64,000 nucleotides of DNA, from IMG/VR virus record IMGVR_UViG_3300035180_000343, positions 1 through 64,000 of that record. The stretch is one strand, 5' to 3'. The notes beneath the pieces were generated by a model. It was not told the origin of the DNA. It made no database searches and worked only from the letters and a program-made list of their open reading frames with translations. The first letter of the stretch is position 1, and the number at the start of each line of letters is the position of its first letter. Source of the stretch: a virus. Shown here one piece after another: positions 15,427-64,000 of the stretch. The position numbers and the translations under genes were made by a program.

Positions 15427-16089
15427 ATGATTTTAATTGAATCTCAGTTTGTAACTGAAGCAAAGAAAGAGGACGATGCTGGAGCAAAATCTTGGAAGAT
15501 CCAAGGTGTGTTCATGCAGGCCGAAGCTCAAAACAAAAACAATCGAATCTATCCTTCTAAAGTCTTATCTAGAGAAACAAATAGATATGTAAATGAATTC
15601 GTAAAAACCAATCGAGCAGTCGGCGAATTAAGCCATCCACAAAGCTCCACAATAAATCCAGATCGCGCCGCAATCTTAATTGAGTCGATTGACCAAACTG
15701 GTAACGACTATATTGGAAAGGCAAAAGTTTTAAATACCCCATGTGGCAAAATCATCCAGGCTCTATTAGAAGGTGGTGTCCAGATCGGGGTATCTTCACG
15801 TGGGCAGGGTTCAGTTAAAAAGCTGAACAATGGCATTTCAGAAGTACAAGATGACTATAATTTAATTTGCATTGATGCGGTAATGTCGCCATCCGCTCCT
15901 AAAGCGTTTGTTGAAGGACTCTACGAATCTACTGAAATCGAAAACATATTAAGTGATTCGATGATGTTAGAAGAGTTTTATCAATGGCTTACAGAGAAAC
16001 GAGCAAGTAAGATGATCTCGAATTCAAAAGAAAGAGAACAAAAACTAATTGCAAGTTTCCAAAAAGCACTCCAACAAATTAAGTCTTAG
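15427..16089 (+). CDS. gp21: Prohead protease
   Basis: IQGVFMQAE, NRIYP, GELSHP, GVSSRGQGS and DAVMSPSAP motifs. Confidence 0.96.
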   Translation: MILIESQFVTEAKKEDDAGAKSWKIQGVFMQAEAQNKNNRIYPSKVLSRETNRYVNEFVKTNRAVGELSHPQSSTINPDRAAILIESIDQTGNDYIGKAKVLNTPCGKIIQALLEGGVQIGVSSRGQGSVKKLNNGISEVQDDYNLICIDAVMSPSAPKAFVEGLYESTEIENILSDSMMLEEFYQWLTEKRASKMISNSKEREQKLIASFQKALQQIKS

Positions 16090-16154: not shown

Positions 16155-16973
16155 ATGGATATTGAATTGGACCAAAAAACCAAAGAAAAGTTGCAGAATA
16201 TTATTGAGGATATTGTCGAAGATGTTTCGATTGACAAATTGTTCAAGGATGCTGAGCTATCTGAAGAAACGGTTGTTCAGCTGAAAGGTTTGTTCGAAAT
16301 TGCTGTTAACGAAGCAATAAAAGAAAAACAAGCTGTTCTTGACGAAGAGTTCGAGACTCGTCTTGCTGAAGAAACTGCTAAGATCGAAGAAAAACTTACT
16401 GCCGACACCGATGCTTATCTTTCCTATGTTGCTGAACAATGGGTTGAAGAAAACCATATTGCAGTTGAATCTGGAGTAAAGGTTGAAATTGCTGAAGGTT
16501 TTATCAATGGGTTAAAGAATCTTTTGGCTGAACATAATATTGATCTGTCAACTGAAGAAATTTCCCAGATTGAGCTTGTTAAAGAAGAAAAGGATGCGGT
16601 GCAGGCTGATCTAGTAAAAGCAATCACCAAGATTAATGAACAAAACAAAGAACTCGTTTCTATTAAGAAAGCTCAAATCTTTTTTGAGAAAACGAAAGAC
16701 ATGTCCGAAGCTCAGGCAGAAAAAGTTAAAGAACTTGTAGCAGTTCTTGATGAAAATAAAACCCCAAAAGAATATGCTTTGATTCTTGAAAGTCTTTCCC
16801 ATAACTTAGTCGAAGGCAATTCTAAAGAAGATAATAAAGAAGTCGTTGAAATCAAAGAAAATATTGAATCTGACGATGACTCCGGATCTCTTGAAACTGT
16901 TGAAATTCCAGAAAGCATGAAGGCTTATGCGTCTGCTATTTCTCGTCAAGTTAAGATTGGCAAAGCCGCTTAA
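16155..16973 (+). CDS. gp22: Prohead scaffold protein
   Basis: LFEIAVN, DAYLSYVAEQWVEEN..AVESGVK and MKAYASAI motifs. Confidence 0.93.
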   Translation: MDIELDQKTKEKLQNIIEDIVEDVSIDKLFKDAELSEETVVQLKGLFEIAVNEAIKEKQAVLDEEFETRLAEETAKIEEKLTADTDAYLSYVAEQWVEENHIAVESGVKVEIAEGFINGLKNLLAEHNIDLSTEEISQIELVKEEKDAVQADLVKAITKINEQNKELVSIKKAQIFFEKTKDMSEAQAEKVKELVAVLDENKTPKEYALILESLSHNLVEGNSKEDNKEVVEIKENIESDDDSGSLETVEIPESMKAYASAISRQVKIGKAA

Positions 16974-17050: not shown

Positions 17051-18448
17051 ATGGAATCGAATTTGATCCAAGAAGAATCTTTAGTAAAGAAGTGGAGTCC
17101 AATTCTAGAACACGCAGATCTGGCTCCTATTAACGACCCATATCGCAAGATGGTAACTGCGGTTTTGATGGAAAACCAAGAAAAGAACAAGCACTTGCAT
17201 GAAACTGCTCCTGCTAACGCAACTGGTGCTGGTATTGCTAATTGGGATCCGGTATTGATTGGTATGATTCGTCGTTCCACTCCTTACCTAATTGGCTTTG
17301 ATATTGCTGGCGTCCAGCCAATGACTCTGCCAACTGGCCTAGTGTTCGCAATGCGTTCGCGTTATAGTGCACAAGCTGGTACAGAAGCACTATTTAACGA
17401 AGCAAACACTGCTTACTCTGGTACTGGTACCCATCTAACTGCTCCAGTTTCTCTAGCATTCGCCGCTACCCTAACCAATGCTTCTGCCAACGTAACAGTA
17501 ACTGATACCTCCAAGATTGTTGTTGGTTCCCAAGTTTGGTCGGCTGCTGGTTCCCTTGGAACTGTTGCTTCTATTACGTCCGGCACTGTGTTCGTTCTAA
17601 GTGCTGCTTATGCCGGTACATCTGGCACCGTTAACATTTCCTTAATCCCAACCACTGGCACTGGAATGTCAACTTCTACTGGTGAAAGTGATATTACTGG
17701 CCAGATGGCTCTAAGCGTGGAAAAGGTGACTGTTTCCGCTCTTACTCGCCAATTGAAGGCTGAATATTCAATCGAACTACAACAAGACCTACAAGCTGTT
17801 CATGGTCTTGATGCAGAATCCGAATTGGCAAATATTCTTTCCAATGAAATTATTACAGAAACCAATCGCGAAATTCTTCGTCAAATCTATTCCCAAGCAA
17901 CTTTGGGCGCAAGAGCTGACACCGCAGTTCCAGGTCGTTTTAATCTAGCAACTGATAGTGATGGTCGTTGGGCTTCTGAGAAATTCAAAGGTCTTCACTT
18001 CTCCCTAGAGCGTGATGCAAACGGTATTATGGTTGATACCAAGCGTGGCAAAGGTAACTTTGTTGTGGTTAGTGCAGACGTAGCTTCTGCTCTAAACATG
18101 GCTGGCCTAATGCTTGGACCATCTGGTCTTGGAAACGGCGAAATTACCAGTGACTTTACTACGAGCACAATGGTTGGTACGCTGAAGAGTGGTATGAAGG
18201 TATATGTTGATCCTTATGCAACTAATAACTTCTACTGTGTTGGTTATAAAGGCACGAGCCCATGGGATGCTGGCTATTTTTACTGCCCATACGTTCCATT
18301 GACGATGTATCGTGCAACTGACCCAACCACCTTCCAACCAAAGATTGCGTTCAAAACACGTTATGGTCAGACTGCTAACCCACTGTTCGGTGGTGGCACT
18401 CGTACCAACTCTTATTATCGTGTAGCAGAAGTTGCTAATCTGGTCTAA
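17051..18448 (+). CDS. gp23: Major capsid protein
   Basis: KWSPIL, GVQPMTLPTGLVFAMR, RQLKAEYSIELQQDL, YCPYVPL and FQPKIAFKTRYG motifs. Confidence 0.98.
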   Translation: MESNLIQEESLVKKWSPILEHADLAPINDPYRKMVTAVLMENQEKNKHLHETAPANATGAGIANWDPVLIGMIRRSTPYLIGFDIAGVQPMTLPTGLVFAMRSRYSAQAGTEALFNEANTAYSGTGTHLTAPVSLAFAATLTNASANVTVTDTSKIVVGSQVWSAAGSLGTVASITSGTVFVLSAAYAGTSGTVNISLIPTTGTGMSTSTGESDITGQMALSVEKVTVSALTRQLKAEYSIELQQDLQAVHGLDAESELANILSNEIITETNREILRQIYSQATLGARADTAVPGRFNLATDSDGRWASEKFKGLHFSLERDANGIMVDTKRGKGNFVVVSADVASALNMAGLMLGPSGLGNGEITSDFTTSTMVGTLKSGMKVYVDPYATNNFYCVGYKGTSPWDAGYFYCPYVPLTMYRATDPTTFQPKIAFKTRYGQTANPLFGGGTRTNSYYRVAEVANLV

Positions 18449-18863: not shown

Positions 18864-19392
18864 TATCGATGGGCAACCCAAGGTTATCAACTTTCTTCAG
18901 ACGAATTCGTTTTTGGCGGTAATTGACAGAATTCCAGCTATCAATTATACTTGTCAAAATGTTTCGACACCTGGGATTAGTGCATCTGCTGCAGAACTGC
19001 CAACGCCATTTAAAGATCTATCAATGCCTGGCGACAACGTAGTATATGATGACTTGTCATTTACTTTTATTATAACATCTGATTTGTCAAACTATCTTGC
19101 TATCAAGCATTGGATGGAAGGATACGCATTCCCAGAATCTTATGAGGAATATACACAGTTCTTAACAGACAAGAAGCCACAGTTAAAGAATCCGGTATTG
19201 AACATGACATCTGACATTTCTGTTCAAGTTCTATCCAATAAGAAGAATAGGATTGCAACATTCCAGTTCAGCAATTGTTTCCCGAATTCGTTAGGAGGAC
19301 TGAACTTAGATGTAACGGATAGTGACACTTCTGTCATCACTGCTGATGTCAGTTTTTCTTTTGCTAATTTCTATGTAGACGTTGCGGTATGA
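18853..19392 (+). CDS. gp3: Tail completion / sheath stabiliser
   Basis: NFLQTNSF, PGDNVVYDDLSFTF, FSNCFPNSLGGLNLD. Start placed at MTIDID. Confidence 0.9.
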   Translation: MTIDIDGQPKVINFLQTNSFLAVIDRIPAINYTCQNVSTPGISASAAELPTPFKDLSMPGDNVVYDDLSFTFIITSDLSNYLAIKHWMEGYAFPESYEEYTQFLTDKKPQLKNPVLNMTSDISVQVLSNKKNRIATFQFSNCFPNSLGGLNLDVTDSDTSVITADVSFSFANFYVDVAV

Positions 19393-19952
19393 TTTCCGAG
19401 GGAAAACAAGTTGGGGTGTTGTATCATTTTACTACTCCACAAGCACTCAACAAGTTGCTCGATGCGTCATATCAAAAAGAGCTCCATGACAAGGGAGATG
19501 TTTTGACGTTTGTTTCAATGTTTGGTCATTTGTCAACGACACGGAACTATCAGTTGAGCACAGACCCTGAACAAGTCTTAAAAGACGGAGATTTGTCAAT
19601 TAAACGAGGATTTTGTGTTAGAATTGCGTTTGATGGAGTCAAAATCGGCGACAAATCTAAGGTTAGGCCTATTGTTTGGGTATCTGCTCAACACAAAGAG
19701 CGAGTGGACAAAAAGGAACAAGAAAGAGAAGAAATCATCTCGAACAAATCTGGAATATTCGATCTTTCCGAATACATTTTGTCCATCGATGTATATGGTT
19801 ATACACCAGAAATCGTTGAATGGTACAAACAAGTTAAACCAAAGATTGAGGCACTTGGAATTCGAACTGAGATGCGAAAGAAGTGGTCGATTGTAAAAGA
19901 AGACGTTTTGACGTTCAAAGAATTTTTGGCATACGACATCACGGAAAGTTAG
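19389..19952 (+). CDS. Hypothetical protein, possible ART-like fold, with C-terminal LTFKEFL motif
   Basis: GVLYHFT motif and EQEREEI. ATGA-coupled to gp3. Confidence 0.6.
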   Translation: MISEGKQVGVLYHFTTPQALNKLLDASYQKELHDKGDVLTFVSMFGHLSTTRNYQLSTDPEQVLKDGDLSIKRGFCVRIAFDGVKIGDKSKVRPIVWVSAQHKERVDKKEQEREEIISNKSGIFDLSEYILSIDVYGYTPEIVEWYKQVKPKIEALGIRTEMRKKWSIVKEDVLTFKEFLAYDITES

Positions 19953-22383: not shown

Positions 22384-22647
22384 ATGACCATTCTAACTTT
22401 CAAAGATTTCGTTTCAGAGGCATTGGACACTGAAGACGAAGTAGTAGCAAAACTTAATTCTCTTGGATTCTCAGTGGAGCGAAACGATTCCAATTACTTC
22501 ATTCTAACTGTTGCCAAGGACGCACCAGCGGAAGTTCAAAAATTGTATGGATCGAAGAAGCTGAACTATCCAAACCTAGATCAGGTAAAACGATTCATCT
22601 CTGCTTTGCCAAGATCAGTCACTCATCCAAAGAAGGCAAAACAATGA
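22384..22647 (+). CDS. Small protein with a capsid-targeting-like N-terminus (LTFKDFVSE)
   Basis: AAGGA RBS and a CTS-like motif. Confidence 0.7.
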   Translation: MTILTFKDFVSEALDTEDEVVAKLNSLGFSVERNDSNYFILTVAKDAPAEVQKLYGSKKLNYPNLDQVKRFISALPRSVTHPKKAKQ

Positions 22648-29659: not shown

Positions 29660-29667
29660 GATAAATA
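29660..29667 (+). promoter_or_regulatory. Late promoter
   Basis: GATAAATA. Confidence 0.6.
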
Positions 29668-29685: not shown

Positions 29686-29913
29686 ATGAAAACGTTTAAA
29701 GAATATATCTTAGAAGGTAAGATGAAGGAAATTCACTCTGAACTCGAACAGATATTGAACAGGGATATCAAGAAATATAAGAAAAGTGGTGGAGACGAAT
29801 GGATTGCTTCTCGTCTAACCGACGCTGCCAAGAAGATTTCGAAAGAATATGGGATTTCTGTTGAAGATGCAACCACTGTCGTAAACGATTACTTTGACGA
29901 AGCGATGCAGTAA
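29686..29913 (+). CDS. Small protein with capsid-targeting-like N-terminus MKTFKEYILE
   Basis: Late promoter, AAGGA RBS and CTS motif. Confidence 0.75.
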   Translation: MKTFKEYILEGKMKEIHSELEQILNRDIKKYKKSGGDEWIASRLTDAAKKISKEYGISVEDATTVVNDYFDEAMQ

Positions 29914-54758: not shown

Positions 54759-54847
54759 TTCGTTGTCCGATTTGTGGACAATTGTATCAGAAGATCTACA
54801 GTTGGCAAGAAATTTGTATTAAGTGTAAAGTGAGTAATGGCAGCTAA
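54755..54847 (+). CDS. 30-aa zinc-finger microprotein (MIRCPICGQLYQKIYSWQEICIKCKVSNGS)
   Basis: Hand-translated. ATGA overlap upstream and overlap with the gp17 start. CxxC-x13-CxxC. Confidence 0.65.
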   Translation: MIRCPICGQLYQKIYSWQEICIKCKVSNGS

Positions 54848-55235
54848 TCTACCCGCCCCACAAAAAAAGACCTATCTTGGCACGAATCTAAAAGCGGCTG
54901 GAGTCGCAATCAACTATGAACCTTGGATGATTGACGAAATCACCAAGTGCATGGATGACCCAATTTATTTCGTCAAGACTTATGTTAAAATAGTAACCCT
55001 AGATAATGGACTTCAACCGTTCCTCTTATATCCATTTCAAGAAGATCTGATAAAACTGTTCCACGAGAATCGTTTCGTTTGTGCAAAGACTGGCAGGCAG
55101 AATGGAAAGTGTTGTTCTGAAAATACTATTGTGAAGATTAAAAACAAAACTTCTGGCGAAATAGTCGAACTCACAATGGGAGAATTGTATGCGTGGCAAA
55201 AGTTTAGGCAATCGGTCAATGCTTCAACTTTCTGA
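54837..55235 (+). CDS. gp17: Terminase large subunit N-fragment plus 41-aa N-intein
   Basis: YLGTNLK, DPIYFVKTYVKIVTLD and RQNGK, then CCSENT from nt 55110. Confidence 0.9.
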   Translation: MAANLPAPQKKTYLGTNLKAAGVAINYEPWMIDEITKCMDDPIYFVKTYVKIVTLDNGLQPFLLYPFQEDLIKLFHENRFVCAKTGRQNGKCCSENTIVKIKNKTSGEIVELTMGELYAWQKFRQSVNASTF

Positions 55236-56964
55236 CATAGTAGAACGAAAGTTCGTCGATTCAATCGAAATATCTGACTGGGAAATTGAAACCGAGTCTG
55301 GTTGGGTTGATATCACGCATATTAACAAAACTATTGAATATGATGTATATAAATTAAATACGTTGAATTGTTCGATTGAATGTGCAGATACTCATATTGT
55401 TTTTAGAGACGACCATTCGGAAGTTTTTGTCAAAGATTTGATTCCTGGTGATGTTATTATTGGACAATATGGCAAAGAAATAGTTATAGGGGTAACCAAA
55501 ACCGACAGGAAAGAACATATGTATGATCTTTCCGTTAGTGGCAATCATACATTCTTTGCGGAAGGATTGCTCCATCATAATACTCAAACAACTGTAGCAT
55601 TTCTTCTCTGGTTCACTCTTTTTAATGAAGACAAGACGTGTGCAATTCTAGCGAACAAAGCCTCAACTGCTAGACAGATTTTAGCGAGATATAAGTTATC
55701 GTTCGAATATCTTCCAGACTGGTTGCAGCAAGGTGTTGTGGAATGGAACAAGGGTTCTGTTGAGCTTGGGAATGGATGTAGAATAATGGCTTCATCTACG
55801 AGTTCAAGCGCAATTCGTGGTGAATCAATTTCGTTCTTGATGTTGGATGAGTTTGCGTTCGTTCCAACAAACATCGCCGAAGACTTCATGGAGTCGGTAT
55901 ATCCAACGATTTCTTCTGGTGTTTCATCAAGAATCATCATCACCTCAACTCCAAACAAGATGAACCACTTTTATAAACTCTACATGGATGCGAAAGAAGG
56001 AAGATCGGATTATGTCCATTATGAGGCAACATGGAGAGCAGTTCCATGGAGAGATGAAGAGTGGATGCGACAGACGATCGCTAATATTGGTGAAGCATCG
56101 TTCCTTCAGGAGTTCGAAGGAAACTTCATGGGTGGCACGGATACCCTGATTGCTCCAGCAGTATTGGCTACGCTAACATATCAAACTCCACTTGTAGTTT
56201 CTGATATTGGTTTAACTGTTTATGAAAAACCAATTGATGGTCACACATACTTCATGACTGTCGATACGTCGAGAGGAACTGGGAATGACTATACTGCAGC
56301 AAACGTTATTGACATCTCTTCGTTTCCATACAAACAAGTAGCTTTGTTCAGAAACAATTCGCTCAACCAATATGTTCTTCCAGAACCGTTGATTGAAATT
56401 GCGAAACAGTATAATGATGCATATATGATTCTAGAGTTGAATGATGCTGGAGAAGGTGTAGCAAATTCAATCTTCTTTGATTTTGAATATGAAAACCTGT
56501 TATGGATTGGAAAGAAGAATGGCAAGTTTTCTCTTGGATCTTCACATAGTGCTTTGCCTGGTATAAGAACAACGGTTTCAACTAAGAGATCATTTTGTGC
56601 CGATTTTAAAGCGATGGTCGAATCTGGTAAACTTATAATTAACGACTTCGAAACAATTAAAGAAATGTCGACGTTCGTTCGTAAAGGCATAACTGGAAAC
56701 AGAATTGAAGCTGAAGACGGAATGCACGATGACATCGTGATGAGTCTTGCTATCTTTGCGTGGGTAGCAACTCAAGATTTTTTCAAAGAACTGTTCGATT
56801 CTAACTTGATGAAAAACATTAGAGACGAACAACGATCCTTAGTTGAAGAAGAACTCGCCCCAATTGGGTTCTTTTCTCACATCGACCCAGAAGAAGAACT
56901 GGTTGGGTTTGAACGTGCAGACACAATCAAACCCGAAGAGCTCAAAACTTGGGATCAAGTTTAG
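55219..56964 (+). CDS. gp17: 121-aa C-intein plus terminase large subunit C-fragment
   Basis: IECADTH, MYDLSV and HHN|T (ends nt 55581), then LDEFAF, SSTPN, TVDTSRG and HDDIVMSL. Confidence 0.92.
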   Translation: MLQLSDIVERKFVDSIEISDWEIETESGWVDITHINKTIEYDVYKLNTLNCSIECADTHIVFRDDHSEVFVKDLIPGDVIIGQYGKEIVIGVTKTDRKEHMYDLSVSGNHTFFAEGLLHHNTQTTVAFLLWFTLFNEDKTCAILANKASTARQILARYKLSFEYLPDWLQQGVVEWNKGSVELGNGCRIMASSTSSSAIRGESISFLMLDEFAFVPTNIAEDFMESVYPTISSGVSSRIIITSTPNKMNHFYKLYMDAKEGRSDYVHYEATWRAVPWRDEEWMRQTIANIGEASFLQEFEGNFMGGTDTLIAPAVLATLTYQTPLVVSDIGLTVYEKPIDGHTYFMTVDTSRGTGNDYTAANVIDISSFPYKQVALFRNNSLNQYVLPEPLIEIAKQYNDAYMILELNDAGEGVANSIFFDFEYENLLWIGKKNGKFSLGSSHSALPGIRTTVSTKRSFCADFKAMVESGKLIINDFETIKEMSTFVRKGITGNRIEAEDGMHDDIVMSLAIFAWVATQDFFKELFDSNLMKNIRDEQRSLVEEELAPIGFFSHIDPEEELVGFERADTIKPEELKTWDQV

Positions 56965-57410: not shown

Positions 57411-57446
57411 AACAGAAAAAGACGTCATTTAAACGTCTTTTCTGTT
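57411..57446. promoter_or_regulatory. Long hairpin adjoining element copy 2
   Basis: AACAGAAAAAGACGT ... ACGTCTTTTCTGTT, about 14 bp with one bulge. Confidence 0.7.
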
Positions 57447-57528: not shown

Positions 57529-58317
57529 TTATTTTTTGAACTCATTACACAATGATTCGAAAACGCTTTCACCGAGGCATAGAACTTTTCCGCCAATCCA
57601 CATTTCTGTTTTAGGGCTTGTTGTCGATCTCTTTTCATATTGTTTTGGAGTTAGCAATTCGAATTCTAGATTGTCATATATTTTTCTGACTTTATTGACA
57701 AAATCACCCAATAAGCTCTCTATTGGGCTGCCTTTAACGCCATATTCTACCGAATCTCTAAATTTTTCGTCGGTTTTTAGTTTCTTATCAAAATCAATAA
57801 ATGACTGCCAATTGGTATCCGAAAGTCCAAATTTTCTAAGCATATTAAAATAACTATTTGCACTTACTAGGCCCGTTCTTTCATTTCCCATAACAATTGA
57901 TTTATCCCATATATCTGGAGCATTGACTACACCAATTTTGGCGTCGTTAAATGGTATGATTGCCATAGGGGGTCCATATTCTTTAGCAGTTTCTATATTA
58001 TTCGCACAAATGAGCGATTGACTTCTTTTTGGATAATTTTTGTATCTTGGATGATTGTCAATAATTAACGTGTACCAATTACTCATGGCTGCACTTTTTC
58101 TCTCAGATTTCGTTGTGTCAACGATAGCAACTCCATCTTTTCCTAAGATTGAATCTTGTTGCTTTTCTCCTCTCCATATTGGAGTCTTAGATTCGAACAT
58201 CCATAGCGAATCGGAACAGTTCTTTTTAACGACTTCGATTGCTTCTTGTAAATCAAGCGGAGTTGATTTAATTGGGGTCACTGATGCTTCTTGAATATAT
58301 TGTTTAAATGTTTTCAT
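57529..58317 (-). CDS. CTS-tagged ART-like paralog 1
   Basis: MKTFKQYIQEA start, with IWRGE / RSQSLIC / KTEMW. Confidence 0.8.
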   Translation of the reverse strand: MKTFKQYIQEASVTPIKSTPLDLQEAIEVVKKNCSDSLWMFESKTPIWRGEKQQDSILGKDGVAIVDTTKSERKSAAMSNWYTLIIDNHPRYKNYPKRSQSLICANNIETAKEYGPPMAIIPFNDAKIGVVNAPDIWDKSIVMGNERTGLVSANSYFNMLRKFGLSDTNWQSFIDFDKKLKTDEKFRDSVEYGVKGSPIESLLGDFVNKVRKIYDNLEFELLTPKQYEKRSTTSPKTEMWIGGKVLCLGESVFESLCNEFKK

Positions 58318-58329
58318 TTTGAACTCGTC

Positions 58330-58372
58330 TTCAACTACCACGCCCCAAAGGCCAAGATTTTATAGCGCCGTC
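58330..58372. mobile_element. IS200/IS605-like terminal motif remnant A
   Basis: TTCAACTACCACGCCCCAAAGGCCAAG..., 35/43 identical to the inverted copy B. Confidence 0.55.
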
Positions 58373-58373
58373 G

Positions 58374-59150
58374 TTATAATATGGTTTCAAAAACTTCTTC
58401 ACTAAGAGCCACGACTTTTCCACTAATCCACATTTCTGTTTCGCGTCGTCTTTTCTTTGCTCTTTCTTCATATTGTTTTGGAGTTAGCAATTCGAATCCT
58501 AGATTGTCATATAGTCCTCTAATTTTAACAATAAAATCATCAAATAAGCTCTTTAAAGGTTTGCTTTCAGCATCATCTTCTACTTCCTCTCTAAATTTTT
58601 TATCGGTTTTCAGTTTCTTGTCAAAATCAACGAACGATTGCCAGTTAGTATCAGAAAGTCCGAATTTTTTAAGCGAATCAAAAGCCTTATTTGCTACTTC
58701 GACGTCCATTTTTTTGCCGCCTATAATAACTGATTTATACCATATATCTGGATCATTAACTACTCCAATTTTAGCATCGTTAAACGGTATAACTGCCATG
58801 GGTGCTCCAAAGTCTTCAGCTCTTTCTATATTACTCGTGCAGATAAGCGATTGACTTCTTTTTGGATAGTCTTTATATTTTGGGCTATTGTCGATAATTA
58901 ACGTATACCAATTACTTGTATTTTGACTTTTCCGTTCCGATTTTGTTGTGTCAATAATACCAGCCTCAGTTTTTCCTAGAATTACATCCATATCATATTC
59001 ACCTCTCCATATTGTTCTTCTGCGTTTAAACATCCACAACGAATCGGAGCAGTTCTTTTTAATAATTTCTTCTGCTTTTTCTAGACTTAGCTTAGTTGAT
59101 TTAATTGGAGTTACAGATGCTTCTTGAATATATTGTTTAAATGTTTTCAT
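58374..59150 (-). CDS. CTS-tagged ART-like paralog 2
   Basis: MKTFKQYIQEA start, with IWRGE / RSQSLICTS / ETEMW. Confidence 0.8.
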   Translation of the reverse strand: MKTFKQYIQEASVTPIKSTKLSLEKAEEIIKKNCSDSLWMFKRRRTIWRGEYDMDVILGKTEAGIIDTTKSERKSQNTSNWYTLIIDNSPKYKDYPKRSQSLICTSNIERAEDFGAPMAVIPFNDAKIGVVNDPDIWYKSVIIGGKKMDVEVANKAFDSLKKFGLSDTNWQSFVDFDKKLKTDKKFREEVEDDAESKPLKSLFDDFIVKIRGLYDNLGFELLTPKQYEERAKKRRRETEMWISGKVVALSEEVFETIL

Positions 59151-59163
59151 TTTCAATATTGTC

Positions 59164-59226
59164 CTATTGAGTTGATTTAATTGGAGTTATTGATGCTTCT
59201 TGAATATATTGTTTAAATGTTTTCAT
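59164..59226 (-). pseudogene. 20-codon tag-only remnant MKTFKQYIQEASITPIKSTQ*
   Basis: Hand-translated. Near-identical to the paralog 5' ends and overlaps the stop of paralog 3. Confidence 0.75.
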
Positions 59227-60025
59227 TTTTGAACTCGTTACATAATGATTCGAAAATGCTTTCACTGAGACATAGAACTTTTCCACCAATCCATAATTCC
59301 GTGTTTTTTTCAGGTGGGTTTTCTCCATATTGTTTTGGAGTTAGCAATTCGAATCCTAGATTATCATACATTTTTCTAACTTTATTGACAAAATCATCCA
59401 ATAAGCTCTCTAAAGGTTTGCCTTCAACACTAACACTTTTTTCTACTGAATCTCTAAATTTTTTGTCGGTTTTCAGTTTCTTGTCAAAATCAACGAACGA
59501 TTGCCAATTGGTATCGGAAAGCCCAAATTTTTTAAGAATATCAAAATAATCATTTATATCTGAAATATATGTTCTTTTGCCTCCGAAAACAACTGATTTA
59601 TCCCATATATCTGGAGCATTGACTACTCCGATTTTAGCATTATTAAATGGTATAATTGCCATGGGTGATCCGAATGGTCCGGTGGTTGCTATTTTGTTCG
59701 TACAAATTAGCGATTGATTTCTTTTTGGGAATTCTTTATATCTTGGATGATTGTCAATAATTAACGTATACCAATTACTTGTATTCTGACTTTTTCGTTC
59801 AGATTTTGTTGTGTCAACGATGGCAACTCCATCTTTTCCTAAGATTGAATTAAGATCATTTTCACCTCTCCATATCGAAGTCTTGGATTTGAACATCCAT
59901 AATGAATCGGAACAGTTCTTCTTAATGACTTCGATTGCTTCTTGTAAATCAATCGGAGTCGATTTAATTGGAGTTATTGATGCTTCTTGAATAAATTGTA
60001 TAAATGTTTTCAATTTCGATACCAC
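59213..60025 (-). CDS. CTS-tagged ART-like paralog 3
   Basis: LKTFIQFIQEA (possible TTG start at 60013), with IWRGE / RNQSLICT / NTELW. Confidence 0.8.
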   Translation of the reverse strand: MVSKLKTFIQFIQEASITPIKSTPIDLQEAIEVIKKNCSDSLWMFKSKTSIWRGENDLNSILGKDGVAIVDTTKSERKSQNTSNWYTLIIDNHPRYKEFPKRNQSLICTNKIATTGPFGSPMAIIPFNNAKIGVVNAPDIWDKSVVFGGKRTYISDINDYFDILKKFGLSDTNWQSFVDFDKKLKTDKKFRDSVEKSVSVEGKPLESLLDDFVNKVRKMYDNLGFELLTPKQYGENPPEKNTELWIGGKVLCLSESIFESLCNEFKNENI

Positions 60026-60744
60026 CCTTCAACTTTCTTGGATAACACGTCCATTGACATCAACTCTGGGGTTAGATATTTATATTTTTCTGCTTTCATT
60101 TTTTCTATTATTCTATTGCCAATTGGATTGTCAATAGGCTTGGAAAAGAACGATTGGGTTTCCTTGAACGCCGCAAGCATTTGAGCATCGCCAAGAGAAT
60201 CGGAATCGTTTTCAACTTGTTTAAAAAATCCTACCTTTGTTTTCAAATATTTAACGTTTTCGTCGTTTCTTGAGTTTACTTCGCGAATAAAATCCTCGTT
60301 GACGTGCCGACCAATTAATTTCGCACGTTCCTGTGCTCGTTTGATTGCGGTTTCCAATGAAGTATGTACGAAAACAACACCAATGTCATATCCAAGCGAT
60401 TCGAGAATACCCATTCGATTGAGAATATTAGATACATCGTTTGACGTACCATCAATGAACAAGGGCAACATACTATTTAGATATTGCGTTAACATTTCTT
60501 TTGTCATTCGTTTTGTGGTATCTTCAAATTCTTTCCAAGTGTCGGATTTAATTTCCTTCTGCCATTTGGATGCCAAAAATTCTGATGCTTTGTCGGTATT
60601 GACTATTTTTGGACTAATCGTGCCGTTAAGTTGTTTTATAGTATAGCTCTTGCCTGCTCCAGGGAGCCCGACAACGAAAATGGCTTTAAAAATGCCCTTG
60701 TCGTTGATGCTTTCGCTTAGAAATTCTTTAAATGTTGCGATCAT
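60010..60744 (-). CDS. CTS-tagged P-loop kinase (zeta-toxin/AAA_33-like)
   Basis: MIATFKEFLSE, VVGLPGAGKS, IVNTD and FIDGT. Late promoter at 60774-60781. Confidence 0.8.
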   Translation of the reverse strand: MIATFKEFLSESINDKGIFKAIFVVGLPGAGKSYTIKQLNGTISPKIVNTDKASEFLASKWQKEIKSDTWKEFEDTTKRMTKEMLTQYLNSMLPLFIDGTSNDVSNILNRMGILESLGYDIGVVFVHTSLETAIKRAQERAKLIGRHVNEDFIREVNSRNDENVKYLKTKVGFFKQVENDSDSLGDAQMLAAFKETQSFFSKPIDNPIGNRIIEKMKAEKYKYLTPELMSMDVLSKKVEGWYRN

Positions 60745-60817
60745 AGTGATGATGTCATCTAGTTTGGGTTATATATTTATGGTTGGCGATTAGGCCAATC
60801 TTTGTTCAACTAGATGA

Positions 60818-61042
60818 TTAAAACCATTTGTAGATGCCCCATGCATTTACGAATCCGAAGTAGATTTGAATGTAAAGAAGAGCCTTCGGTGAATTTGATT
60901 TGACTAGTAGGTAGGCAGACGCAATTCCGCCTACTAGAAAGAACACAAATCCAAATTTCGATAGATCATTGTTGTTTGCTATCAATGACGATCCAATTAC
61001 AGCTCCACCGAATGCTACTATTTCCAAGAATTTGCTAAACAT
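60818..61042 (-). CDS. Small multi-pass membrane protein
   Basis: Three hydrophobic segments ending in NAWGIYKW. Confidence 0.7.
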   Translation of the reverse strand: MFSKFLEIVAFGGAVIGSSLIANNNDLSKFGFVFFLVGGIASAYLLVKSNSPKALLYIQIYFGFVNAWGIYKWF

Positions 61043-61175
61043 CGAATTCGGATTCGTTCAGCGTGTAGCATTCTAGCAATGCAAAAGATTCCAAGATTTC
61101 AGCTTTTTGTCGTGCCTCGGATTCTGAAATTGCGATAACACTGATTGTTTCTTTTCCATTCGAAAACTTGTACAT
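61035..61175 (-). CDS. 46-aa hypothetical protein (MYKFSNGKETISVIAISESEAR...)
   Basis: Hand-translated. Overlaps the next start. Confidence 0.55.
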   Translation of the reverse strand: MYKFSNGKETISVIAISESEARQKAEILESFALLECYTLNESEFDV

Positions 61176-61212
61176 CTTTTTGATCAACAGCATTGATAGT
61201 TCCTTTTTGGAG

Positions 61213-61236
61213 AAAAAGACCCACCGAAGTGGGCCT
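61213..61236 (-). terminator. UUCG-loop intrinsic terminator
   Basis: GGCCCAC-TTCG-GTGGGTC-TTTTT on the minus strand. Confidence 0.85.
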
Positions 61237-61259
61237 ATGAATTGAAGATTTTTTTACCA

Positions 61260-61302
61260 GATGGCACCGTAAAACCTTAGCCTTTAGGGCGTGGTAGTTG
61301 AC
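61260..61302. mobile_element. IS200/IS605-like terminal motif remnant B
   Basis: ...CCTTTAGGGCGTGGTAGTTGAC, which supplies the last codons and stop of the large ORF. Confidence 0.6.
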
Positions 61303-64000
61303 CTTCCGTTAAGCAGATCCAAGAATTTTGTTATTTCATCTGCATTCCACATAAACTCTTGTGTAGATGCTACACAAAATGTTTCGGATTCTGGATGGTT
61401 ATGTGAGATGACCACTAATGGGCCAGTTTGTCCTGGTTCAATCCTAACACGATCGCCAAATTTCGATGGGTCAAACTCATTCGAACCTACTGCTTTGTTT
61501 TCACTAACTGGAATGTTCCCATCCATAAAAATATATGTCGTCGCGTTCATATAATTTTCGGTTGCTTCTTTGATGAATTCTTTAAATGCTTTGATTTTCA
61601 CTATATTCTCGTTAATTTTATATTGTTCTTTAAGATTTTGTATATAACTTTTGTCAACGATTTCGATCTTGAATGCTTTATAGATTTTCAATTGTTTGTT
61701 CGGAGAAAATACGCACCATTCTGGAGAAATGATATCGTCGCCTCCTAAACCAGCAGATAGATAATCTTTACCTTCTTTCCCAAGCAAAGCATGCATTTGG
61801 AAAACATATCCAACAGTTTTAATCCCTCGAGTAATCTCAATGTCCCCCGTATATTGAGCTACCTTGTCTAAGACGTTTGAAAAATAAATTCCATCGCCAA
61901 GCATTTTGCCACTGGTTTTAATTGGACCGCCAATACCAGTTATGACTGCAAACCCATATCGAAGAATCATGCTTGCCGCAACCGATCCAGTTCCATGAAA
62001 AACAGGATCAAGAACTTTAGTATCTGGCATATATTCTAGAAATTCCTGTTGCCCTTGATTTTGTTTTTCGATATTGACGTCGAACTCTTCAAGAAATTTT
62101 ACCCCGATGTTGCCATGTCTATATTTGTTGAACACATCATATTCGATAGTCAGCCGATCCATTTCTTCTTCTGATTTGTCAAGTTTAGAAACTTTTAAAT
62201 CTTGAATTAGTCCCGAATCTGAAATAGTTTTTCCGATATTTTCTTGTAATGCTTTATATGTCGTCAACTCTTCCTTTTTAACAGCCAGCGACGGAACATG
62301 AATGTCATTATATTCCAAAATAGAAATTAAACTGTTATTATCAATGCTTATCAAAGGCTTAATGACATCGTTGGTTATTAGTTTTGCACTTTGTTCGATA
62401 AACTTTACATTCATTATGCGGTTTGCTAGTTTTTTTCTTGTCGGTGTGTCTACTTTTTGAAAGACATCTTCTAAAACTTCATCTTTGTCTTCAACGACGA
62501 GTTTATCAATAATTCGATTGACAGTCTCGTTCAAAGTATCTTTTATACTTTTTGCATATCCAGAATCAGTCTTTAATAGATTTAAAAAATTGAGTGTTGT
62601 TTTTGTTGAAACTGCTTTCCAATTATCTCCATCAGAAAATGATTTCATTAGACCTACGCTAAATTTGTCAATTTTTATTGGTTGATGATCGAATGTGGTT
62701 TCGACGAATTTATTTGCTTGTTCTGGAGTAAAAAGAACAGTTGCTAATAAACTAGATGTGTGGTCTAGAACTGGAGATTTCATTGTTTGTTCAAACAAAT
62801 TTCCTCTCAATTTTTCTTTCAGCTTTTCTGGAAAGTTCGCGACTCCTGTAAAGTTTTCCAGAAGTTTTCCAGTTTTGACATCGTTATTCAGCAGTTGTTT
62901 CATTTTTACGACTATTTCATCTGGGATTTCATCTCCTAATAGTTGAAAATGTTTTCCCAAACCGACGACTGCCGCTATGTCGGTTGCTGTGTCAACACGT
63001 TGTTCGATCATTGAAAAAAGTTTTTCTTTCATTTTCGGGAAAGCATTATAAATTCGGTTTAAATACTCAGGAAAATCGAAATAAGAGTTCAATATATCAA
63101 AAAATATACGTTTTACGTCGTCATCACTTGGAAGAGGTGTTTCTTTTTGGTTTTGTTTGATTTTAACAGTATTGTTATAAAAAAACTCATAATCAGTCGG
63201 TATATTATATTTAACTCTATACTCGAAAACTTTATCAGCAATTATCGAAGCCGAACTAAAATATGTAGAAGCAACCAATTTTAAGAATTTAAGGCTAAAC
63301 CCAACATCGAACATTCTGGACGCTATTGTCGAATCCTTGGCCATATTCCAAAATTGTTTTGCATCGACGGTGTCGTCGTTCCATACTAATTTGTATACTC
63401 CGATTACGATATCATTCAAAACATTTCGTTTCGCATTGCTCATGCGGTTTATCGTATTTTGATTAAATTTTTGTAAAAATCCCCCAAGATTTGTTCCAAC
63501 GACTGGTTGTGCTTTTGCTTGTCTAATTCCCTCGGTTATAGCAGATTGAGTGAACTCTTTCATATCGGAATTTTTAGTCAATTGGTCAAAATAACTAAAA
63601 TTCTGCTGATTCATCGTTAACGCTCGAACGAACTCATATACGATTTCCGCTGGAGTTCTGGTTTTGACGATTTTAAATATTTTAAACGGTAGATCCATGT
63701 CAATAACTCGTCTAATTGACATTGGAAGAATGTTATGATTGTCAGACGAAATTTCGATTGTGTCTGGGTCGGGAGAATATATTAAAGAATCTTCTCCCAA
63801 CCTTATTAGAAGATTCTCAATTCCAGTCTTAATGGAGGATAGTATATTTGGAAGAACTACGTTCGATGTCGAACACATTCTAAATGAGATGAATGCCTTT
63901 AATGTAGATTCGTCGCCGTTGCTGAGGCTATACTTTATTGAATCCATGTTCGACATTATTGGAGTATAACTCTTATTTGGTATCAACTCTCTATAAAATG
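61284..64000 (-). CDS. Large Alt-like protein (5'-truncated by the window) with a PARP-like ADP-ribosyltransferase domain
   Basis: VFHGT, GKMLGDGIYFS..K..QY and PEWCVF. The frame is open to the window edge. Confidence 0.75.
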   Translation of the reverse strand, partial: FYRELIPNKSYTPIMSNMDSIKYSLSNGDESTLKAFISFRMCSTSNVVLPNILSSIKTGIENLLIRLGEDSLIYSPDPDTIEISSDNHNILPMSIRRVIDMDLPFKIFKIVKTRTPAEIVYEFVRALTMNQQNFSYFDQLTKNSDMKEFTQSAITEGIRQAKAQPVVGTNLGGFLQKFNQNTINRMSNAKRNVLNDIVIGVYKLVWNDDTVDAKQFWNMAKDSTIASRMFDVGFSLKFLKLVASTYFSSASIIADKVFEYRVKYNIPTDYEFFYNNTVKIKQNQKETPLPSDDDVKRIFFDILNSYFDFPEYLNRIYNAFPKMKEKLFSMIEQRVDTATDIAAVVGLGKHFQLLGDEIPDEIVVKMKQLLNNDVKTGKLLENFTGVANFPEKLKEKLRGNLFEQTMKSPVLDHTSSLLATVLFTPEQANKFVETTFDHQPIKIDKFSVGLMKSFSDGDNWKAVSTKTTLNFLNLLKTDSGYAKSIKDTLNETVNRIIDKLVVEDKDEVLEDVFQKVDTPTRKKLANRIMNVKFIEQSAKLITNDVIKPLISIDNNSLISILEYNDIHVPSLAVKKEELTTYKALQENIGKTISDSGLIQDLKVSKLDKSEEEMDRLTIEYDVFNKYRHGNIGVKFLEEFDVNIEKQNQGQQEFLEYMPDTKVLDPVFHGTGSVAASMILRYGFAVITGIGGPIKTSGKMLGDGIYFSNVLDKVAQYTGDIEITRGIKTVGYVFQMHALLGKEGKDYLSAGLGGDDIISPEWCVFSPNKQLKIYKAFKIEIVDKSYIQNLKEQYKINENIVKIKAFKEFIKEATENYMNATTYIFMDGNIPVSENKAVGSNEFDPSKFGDRVRIEPGQTGPLVVISHNHPESETFCVASTQEFMWNADEITKFLDLLNGRSTTTP

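Follow-up and report, generated by a model that had tools for sequence, protein, structure and literature searches.

The stretch of DNA analysed here (the window) is the first 64 kb (64,000 nucleotides) of the 129,321-bp IMG/VR viral contig IMGVR_UViG_3300035180_000343, which has an estimated completeness of ~71% and whose genes mark its source as an uncultured T4-like phage. With the region as query, megablast returned 0 matches in the phage collection, leaving it with no near relative among isolated phages. At the right end of the window lies a row of minus-strand genes, several of whose products carry a short peptide like the capsid-targeting sequence (CTS) of phage T4. The row begins with the gene of a giant PARP-like protein of 1319 aa and 148 kDa (61284-64000 in the window and on to contig position 65243, so that the window holds its last 904 codons), followed by a P-loop kinase of 244 aa with the Walker A motif GLPGAGKS (60010-60744) and three tandem paralogs of ~29 kDa each, whose bodies resemble the ADP-ribosyltransferase (ART) fold: paralog C (59213-60013, 266 aa, with a TTG start), paralog B (58374-59150, 258 aa) and paralog A (57529-58320, 263 aa, mature mass ~28.6 kDa, phrog_12810). 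Between paralogs B and C stands an orphan tag of 20 codons (MKTFKQYIQEASITPIKSTQ) followed by a stop (59164-59226, minus strand). Two small tagged proteins are encoded elsewhere on the plus strand, one of 87 aa (22384-22647; tag followed by Ala, mature mass 8.4 kDa, isoelectric point 9.3) and one of 75 aa (29686-29913; tag followed by Gly, mature mass 7.4 kDa).

All of the tag peptides that an earlier sequence-only reading had picked out were present in the sequence, and its claim that one motif recurs in them was borne out by a motif scan. The called genes of the contig contain 11 matches to a CTS-type decapeptide ending in [ILV]-x-Glu, 8 of them N-terminal, whereas 200 residue shuffles of the called proteins averaged 0.285 and never exceeded 3. 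The N-terminal copies in the window are MKTFKQYIQE in the open reading frames (ORFs) starting at 58320 and 59150 (paralogs A and B), LKTFIQFIQE at 60013 (paralog C), MIATFKEFLSE at 60744 (the kinase), MKTFKEYILE at 29686 and MTILTFKDFVSE at 22384. The set first listed stood as far as it went but was incomplete: two further N-terminal copies lie beyond the window, LKTFRQFIYE at contig position 80844 and LKSFRKFVSE at 83188, and extend the set to nucleotidyltransferase (NTase)-like and ligase-like proteins. The tagged genes are spread over at least four loci of the contig.

The T4 CTS is MKTYQEFIAE (PMC8442874), in which targeting depends on positions 4 and 7 and processing on positions 8 and 10 (PMC9026906). 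MKTFKEYILE and MKTFKQYIQE are identical to it at 5-6 of 10 residues, with one aromatic residue exchanged for another at positions 4 and 7, and the residues kept among the tags are M-K-T, an aromatic residue at 4 and at 7, I, L or V at 8 and Glu at 10. The endings (IQE, ILE, LSE, VSE, IYE and LEE) all conform to the cut motif of the T4 prohead protease gp21, and the next residue is A, G, S, D or N. Among unrelated genes the same tag residues are written in different codons (TTT or TTC; AAA, CGA or AGA; GAA or GAG), so that it is the peptide, and not the DNA, that is under selection. Within the paralog family the tag is kept in members down to ~30% identity, while the residues just downstream are variable. 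We rejected a signal peptide or membrane anchor as the identity of the tag, which is short, amphipathic and charged.

The head genes on which a T4-type tag would depend are encoded in the window, namely a gp21-type prohead protease (Peptidase_S77; 15427-16089, plus strand; PF03420, E 2.4e-43), a gp22-type scaffold protein that is the presumed docking partner of the tag (16155-16973, plus strand; PF25623 T4_CASP, E 1.6e-39) and a gp23 capsid protein (17051-18448; E 7e-123). The sequence-only reading had taken the motif for a T4-type CTS, and the residue identity, the cut-motif endings and the presence of these three genes all agree with this; the copy that it had listed in ORF 19389 is C-terminal and atypical. 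The protease itself starts with MILIESQFVTE followed by Ala (15427-15460), a tag-like leader closing in a cut motif, which fits the suggestion that gp21 is itself targeted and self-processed at its N-terminus (PMC9026906).

Late-promoter-like boxes of the form NATAAATA precede 27 of the 170 called genes, mostly structural genes and every transcription unit that contains a tagged gene. The late promoters previously proposed for the genes at 29686 and 60744 were recovered as GATAAATA (29660-29667) and CATAAATA (60774-60781, minus strand, 30 nt upstream of the kinase start), each of which is TATAAATA with one mismatch. An exact TATAAATA box (60077-60084, minus strand) lies within the 3' end of the kinase gene, 64 nt upstream of paralog C and hence of the paralog row, a AATAAATA box precedes the giant gene (contig 65284-65277, minus strand), and another CATAAATA box heads the operon at contig 83.2 kb. 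Terminator-like hairpins follow the giant gene (61217-61236, minus strand) and close the kinase-paralog transcription unit (57416-57442, minus strand). Judged by these consensus matches, the tagged genes may be expressed late.

The paralog row shows signs of turnover. The DNA that encodes the tag forms a 64-nt repeat (D6) with four copies in the row, the orphan being the fourth, and a relative that is 87% identical (L013) has four full paralog copies. The orphan is therefore probably the remnant of a lost fourth paralog, removed by recombination through the tag sequence. Such turnover is reminiscent of the polymorphic internal-protein loci of T-even phages.

When 72 related viral loci were compared, we found 227 ORFs of the paralog family, most of them arranged in tandem with 2-10 copies to an array. 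Almost all of these, and most of the best 150 cluster representatives, start with M[ILRK][TSFL]FK[QED][FY][LI]xE or a lineage variant of it. Across these loci the first 60 residues of ORF segments hold 236 matches to the tag pattern in 232,740 residues and the remaining parts 8 in 287,328, a ~36-fold difference in density. The ORFs headed by a tag comprise 116 ART-like proteins and 120 others, including 14 kinases and a second family of ~210 aa; in a sample of those outside the family, Pfam matches were obtained to a C39-like peptidase (E 1.5e-15), an amidoligase (1e-18), GNAT (2.6e-5), ART-PolyVal (2.9e-6, below cut-off) and MPTase-PolyVal. Tags of unrelated proteins within one locus resemble each other more than expected, with a mean best identity of 4.47 of 8 residues versus 3.45 when permuted (sd 0.22, maximum 4.11, 1000 permutations), so the tags co-vary with genome and lineage. 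In the Agrobacterium jumbo phage Atu_ph07, members of the family bear another tag, M[RK]WxQL[TN]E (9 exact matches to that pattern, 0 in the control); a tandem row of at least nine tagged members, one of them an ART-kinase fusion, runs from 41.8 to ~48.8 kb, and one more tagged gene is found 260 kb away at 304780 (L006 and L011:1281-2057). A PF03420 gp21-type protease is encoded by all five isolated phages that have tagged homologs (5/5). One subclass of ART-fold proteins has an extra N-terminal domain of ~62 aa (MPxTALKHLAKKAK...MMGL) before the tag, which is thus internal; it occurs in loci L016, L017, L022, L028, L034-L036 and L045 (proteins P0023, P0061, P0068 and others).

These data bear on the explanation that the shared N-terminus has no sorting role, having arisen as a by-product when gene starts duplicated and recombined, or being a stretch that favours translation initiation. 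It would account for the 64-nt repeat in the paralog row, orphan copy included, and for the A/T-rich tag codons, which favour initiation. We nevertheless regard it as very improbable, given that the tags of unrelated genes use different codons and conservative substitutions, that the motif always closes in a protease cut motif, that one protein family carries different tags in different phage lineages, and that the motif is internal in 107 of 120 homologs of the giant protein, where translation initiation is irrelevant.

Turning to the cargo, the bodies of the three paralogs point to the ART fold. The AlphaFold2 (AF2) model of paralog B, the copy used for modelling (its tag is followed by Ala), has a predicted local distance difference test (pLDDT) score of 89.9 from an alignment of 37 sequences, and its poorly ordered part is the tag alone. 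In an exhaustive VIA-align comparison the first 21 rows are nearly all ART-fold proteins, among them BC2332, Arr, diphtheria toxin, PE-like and cholix toxins, AcrIF11, CteC, ExoA, tankyrase and PARP16. The highest structural score, Z 6.2, is to 2aua, which we take to be a DUF2441 member. DUF2441 (0.82) and DUF3990 (TM 0.32-0.40) are also the nearest named Atlas neighbours of the paralogs, and both belong to the Pfam ART clan (PMC7955679). The paralogs differ from these two families in having no hidden Markov model (HMM) match to them, an invariant set of their own (R73, S75, N80, Y82, T83, P96, R98, D135 and W137) and a helical insert of ~75 residues. In the family alignment at least 90% of members keep R49/G50, S99/S101 and E239/W241; in the model W-R49-G lies in strand 1 (47-51), S99-x-S101 just before strand 102-105 and E239-x-W at the opening of a late strand (239-243). 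From the model, the neighbours and the alignment, we consider the paralogs to be a divergent ART-fold family with a putative R-S-E-like site, their membership of the fold being likely and not secure. The family is unnamed and large, with 4,026 clusters (at 50% identity) at E <= 0.001 and 1,969 at E <= 1e-30. Paralog A has AAM in place of the family's near-invariant QNT (N77) and retains R49, S101 and E239; on its sequence, it may be diverging in function.

The sequence-only reading had described the cargo as enzymes: three ART-like proteins, a kinase and a PARP-like protein. For the last two this held well, the kinase passing Pfam cut-offs and the giant having a PARP1-like catalytic domain, while the three paralogs agreed by fold at weak Z-scores. 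A competing possibility is that the tagged ART-like paralogs lack catalytic activity and only bind, for instance as decoys or as inhibitors in the manner of T4 IPI, in place of being enzymes that use nicotinamide adenine dinucleotide (NAD), so that to speak of an enzyme arsenal would be an overstatement even if they are packaged. The lack of any ART-clan HMM match, the modest structural Z and the loss of the near-invariant Asn from paralog A are what one would then expect to see. Inert binders are harder to reconcile with the retention of R49, S101 and E239 in at least 90% of members, and of other residues in all, across sequences that are 25-35% identical, or with the model, in which these three residues occupy the places on the strands where an R-S-E site would be expected. 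We therefore judge this alternative unlikely.

The tagged kinase belongs to the Zeta-toxin/AAA_33 group, with Pfam scores of 47.1 bits for Zeta_toxin (cut-off 22.3) and 45.4 bits for AAA_33 (cut-off 27). It weakly resembles polynucleotide kinase (PHROG, E 3.5e-10), and a PDB sequence search gave 0 hits. Tagged homologs of the kinase were found in RsoM2USA, Melnitz (start MKTFAELQE) and HTVC008M (start MIPFILKE), and in RsoM2USA the tagged kinase adjoins a tagged member of the paralog family and two further tagged proteins. The match to PHROG 12810 places the paralog domain at 24-254 and a kinase domain at 261-464 of the profile, an order showing that the two are fused in some phages; a kinase-ART-like fusion is also the form seen in Atu_ph07. 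A search for related loci from the single kinase sequence returned one close relative, and the family alignment was needed to recover more.

The giant protein combines an enzyme domain with two candidate cut sites. Its PARP-type catalytic domain (61620-62192, minus strand) carries H1083, Y1120 and E1175 in the motifs FHGTGS, GDGIYFSN and SPEWCVF, and this H-Y-E triad is invariant among 45 giant-protein sequences. A model of the last 340 residues (pLDDT 86.3) matches PARP1/2 catalytic domains in Foldseek at E ~1e-9 (PARP1 9e-10; probability 1.00). The protein's own Pfam score for the PARP catalytic domain, 20.5, is below the cut-off of 26.7; in the family of 305 homologous clusters, PF00644 is matched by many and WGR by some. 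By model and sequence, we take it to be a true PARP-fold enzyme. Relatives occur in the T4-like isolates pf16 (gp92), Moby (gp067), RSP15 and Aeh1, and some of them are annotated as ADP-ribosyltransferase.

The internal motif that the sequence-only reading had noted in this protein is present as KAFKEFIKE (61566-61592, minus strand), and what that reading had missed is that it is a conserved site in front of a C-terminal domain and that the protein has an N-terminal leader as well. The domain, of ~90 aa and rich in beta-strands, is encoded at 61287-61565 (minus strand). In the 107 homologs that keep it, the internal tag lies 84-112 residues (mostly 86-93) from the C-terminal end, and in the 45-sequence alignment its Glu is invariant and its Phe ~90% conserved. 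The internal-tag region is also the sole low-confidence stretch between the PARP domain and the C-terminal domain (model residues 245-249, protein residues 1224-1228, pLDDT < 50), so that the tag sits in a linker, where a head protease is predicted to cut after the Glu. The leader, MKQLNSFLEE followed by NTIYT, is of the same type as the tag, and across the family the N-termini are variable leaders ending in hydrophobic-x-Glu before a conserved NSLYT. No stand-alone homologs of the C-terminal domain were found in the genome or the 72 related loci. The giant protein is thus probably clipped at both ends, after FLEE of the leader and after the internal tag, and the internal cut would free or remove the 90-aa domain.

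T4 Alt offers the closest precedent for such double clipping. The catalytic domain of Alt is VIP2-like and of the R-S-E type. Alt is a head-packaged, injected ADP-ribosyltransferase processed at ITE-6 and LTE-619 (PMC5694885), and the giant protein is like it in being a large, NAD-dependent transferase-type protein with a short N-terminal leader closing in a cut motif and a second predicted cut that takes off a stretch at the C-terminus (63 aa for Alt, 90 aa for the giant protein). In contrast to Alt, it is twice the size, has a PARP-type H-Y-E domain and carries a complete CTS-like motif at its predicted C-terminal cut site. We rejected homology of the giant protein to Alt: the two belong to different catalytic clades, and when 50,697 phage records were searched by tblastn with the giant protein and with the paralogs, no T4-type Alt was among the matches listed.

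The decapeptide is best explained as this phage's version of the T4 CTS, heading an enzyme-rich head cargo, and we consider its role in targeting and processing to be fairly likely; for delivery into the host and action there our confidence is lower. What leads us here is a close copy of the T4 load-then-clip tag on about ten mostly enzyme-like proteins, which are thus probably packed in the capsid and delivered with the DNA. On this account synthesis of the tagged proteins would fall late in infection, docking by the tag onto the gp22 scaffolding core would accompany prohead assembly, and the gp21-type protease would cut after the terminal Glu of the tag; the mature proteins would then be retained beside the DNA in the head and pass into the host when it is infected, like T4 IPI-III and Alt. 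The predicted cargo consists of the three ART-fold paralogs, the P-loop kinase, the two small proteins, the NTase-like and ligase-like proteins and the 148-kDa PARP-like enzyme. We infer docking, cleavage, retention, ejection and action on the host from the likeness to T4, and once inside, the proteins could serve an anti-defence role or reprogram the host.

The likeness to the T4 internal head proteins extends to a tag of ~10 residues with the same key positions (4, 7, 8 and 10) and a gp21 cut-motif ending, to the encoding of gp21, gp22 and gp23, to late-promoter-like boxes ahead of the tagged genes, and to the polymorphic, recombining nature of these genes. Unlike the small internal proteins of T4, the cargo here is mostly large and enzyme-like (29 to 148 kDa); its genes are spread over at least four loci, one family has an internal tag, and the system is known here from sequence alone. 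Head-packaged ARTs and polyvalent effector proteins of myoviruses were predicted by Iyer, Burroughs, Anantharaman and Aravind (PMC9503650). Our proteins resemble theirs in being probable ART-superfamily members next to terminase and head genes and predicted to be injected, and the tagged cargo of the related loci likewise includes ART-PolyVal, MPTase-PolyVal-like, C39-like peptidase, amidoligase and GNAT domains. They differ in being encoded one effector to a gene, each under a predicted cleavable tag, and not as polyprotein domains or MuF fusions, and that study makes no mention of Atu_ph07, the present tag or the kinase partner.

The same tag could instead be a signal for the prohead protease or for core assembly only, its bearers being accessories of the core or scaffold that maturation degrades or expels, and not delivered effectors. 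The T4 core proteins gp22, gp67 and gp68 are likewise cut at L/I-x-E and then lost from the head (PMC5694885), and the tag-like N-terminus of the protease itself would suit such a role. We think this improbable, because the bodies of the cargo have enzyme-like folds with conserved catalytic-type residues, their genes evolve as fast-diversifying tandem arrays, their domains overlap the repertoire of the predicted injected polyvalent proteins (PMC9503650), and each has one terminal cut motif as against the many internal sites of the scaffold.

Several results weigh against packaged and injected enzymes as the reading of the tagged set. The structural scores behind the ART assignment of the paralogs are weak (Z 6.2 at best), a Foldseek search of the PDB with the paralog model returned nothing at E <= 0.001, and searches with Pfam, NCBIfam and PDB-sequence profiles returned no ART family at E up to 1-10. 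The promoter-like boxes are short consensus matches. Many giant homologs have a leader of 4-5 residues (MLLE, then NSLYT), and therefore the N-terminal tag of that family is not always a full CTS. As the 64-nt repeat and the orphan show, recombination occurs, and the similarity of tags within a genome could partly reflect gene conversion of the tag-coding DNA. The virion gel bands published for RsoM2USA (PMC8504454) gave no mass match to its tagged genes. That list names 'ORF257, 17.57 kDa' versus 19.65 kDa for RsoM2USA_257 in GenBank, and since the numbering cannot be reconciled, we did not count it as support. In the literature on the relatives we found no virion proteomics that settles packaging, and the publication on pf16 reports none for gp92.

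The mechanism is known from T4, and the T4 CTS, T4 Alt and the predicted head-packaged ARTs have all been published. New here are the cargo families, the size and near-universal tagging of the unnamed ART-fold family, its partnership with the kinase and the conserved internal tag of the PARP-like giants. More tentatively, the internal tag of the giant family might act in zymogen-like control, with the 90-aa domain tethering or silencing the enzyme until the head protease clips it in the capsid, and, independently of this, the tagged kinase and the unnamed family of ART-like fold, whose ~4,000 clusters are nearly always tagged and usually arranged in tandem, might form a large unrecognised class of injected phage effectors whose repertoire can be read from genomes by the tag; we rate this extended proposal as a possibility with the odds against it. 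If the tag works as in T4, the proteins that a T4-like phage injects with its DNA can be listed simply from their sequences, the injected list here would be dominated by enzyme-like proteins and not small inhibitors, and the tagged proteins become candidates for the first seconds of host takeover or counter-defence.

Among the remaining genes with a tag or tag-like peptide, ORF 19389 (19389-19952, plus strand) encodes a 187-aa protein directly after the capsid-gene block, with LYHFT near its N-terminal end and LTFKEFLAYDITES at its C-terminal end. Its LTFKEFL lies at the extreme C-terminus and lacks the x-Glu ending. Its Atlas features are nearest to a DarT/PARP-named viral cluster (0.92) and to Arr (0.89), and it has no Pfam or PDB sequence match. 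Possibly this is a fifth member of the ART superfamily, tagged at the C-terminus and not at the N-terminus, which we offer as a lead only. The tagged proteins at contig 80-83 kb contain a ligase-type pattern (KVDG...EGIV) and a pol-beta NTase pattern (GS...DID); HMM searches gave no confirmation of a ligase or NTase identity, and a PDB sequence search gave 0 hits. Their operon (contig 78616-83209; L004:616-5209), headed by a late box, encodes in order the tagged NTase-like protein, an untagged 415-aa protein, the tagged ligase-like protein, a metallophosphoesterase (Pfam) and a HIGH-type cytidylyltransferase (Pfam). Together with the tagged P-loop kinase, this gene set resembles an RNA-repair or nucleotide-modifying kit.

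Other features of the contig are apart from the tagged set. Two small untagged ORFs (60818-61193, minus strand), one of 52 aa and one of 74 aa that looks hydrophobic, lie between the giant gene and the kinase. The large terminase gene (window 54837-56964) is present as two overlapping ORFs in different frames, the first ending in ...RQNGKCCSENTIVKIK... and the second holding ...LLHHNTQTT; this resembles an insertion of the intein type at the Walker A region. At the start of the contig (window 3-161) is a tandem repeat that in one frame reads DYINI many times and may be terminal or assembly-related. Three TnpB-like genes of ~423 aa (MKQLLAYKYRIYPTK...) are found on the plus strand at contig 77311, 85835 and 92939, each with an exact TATAAATA 12-14 nt upstream of its start codon.

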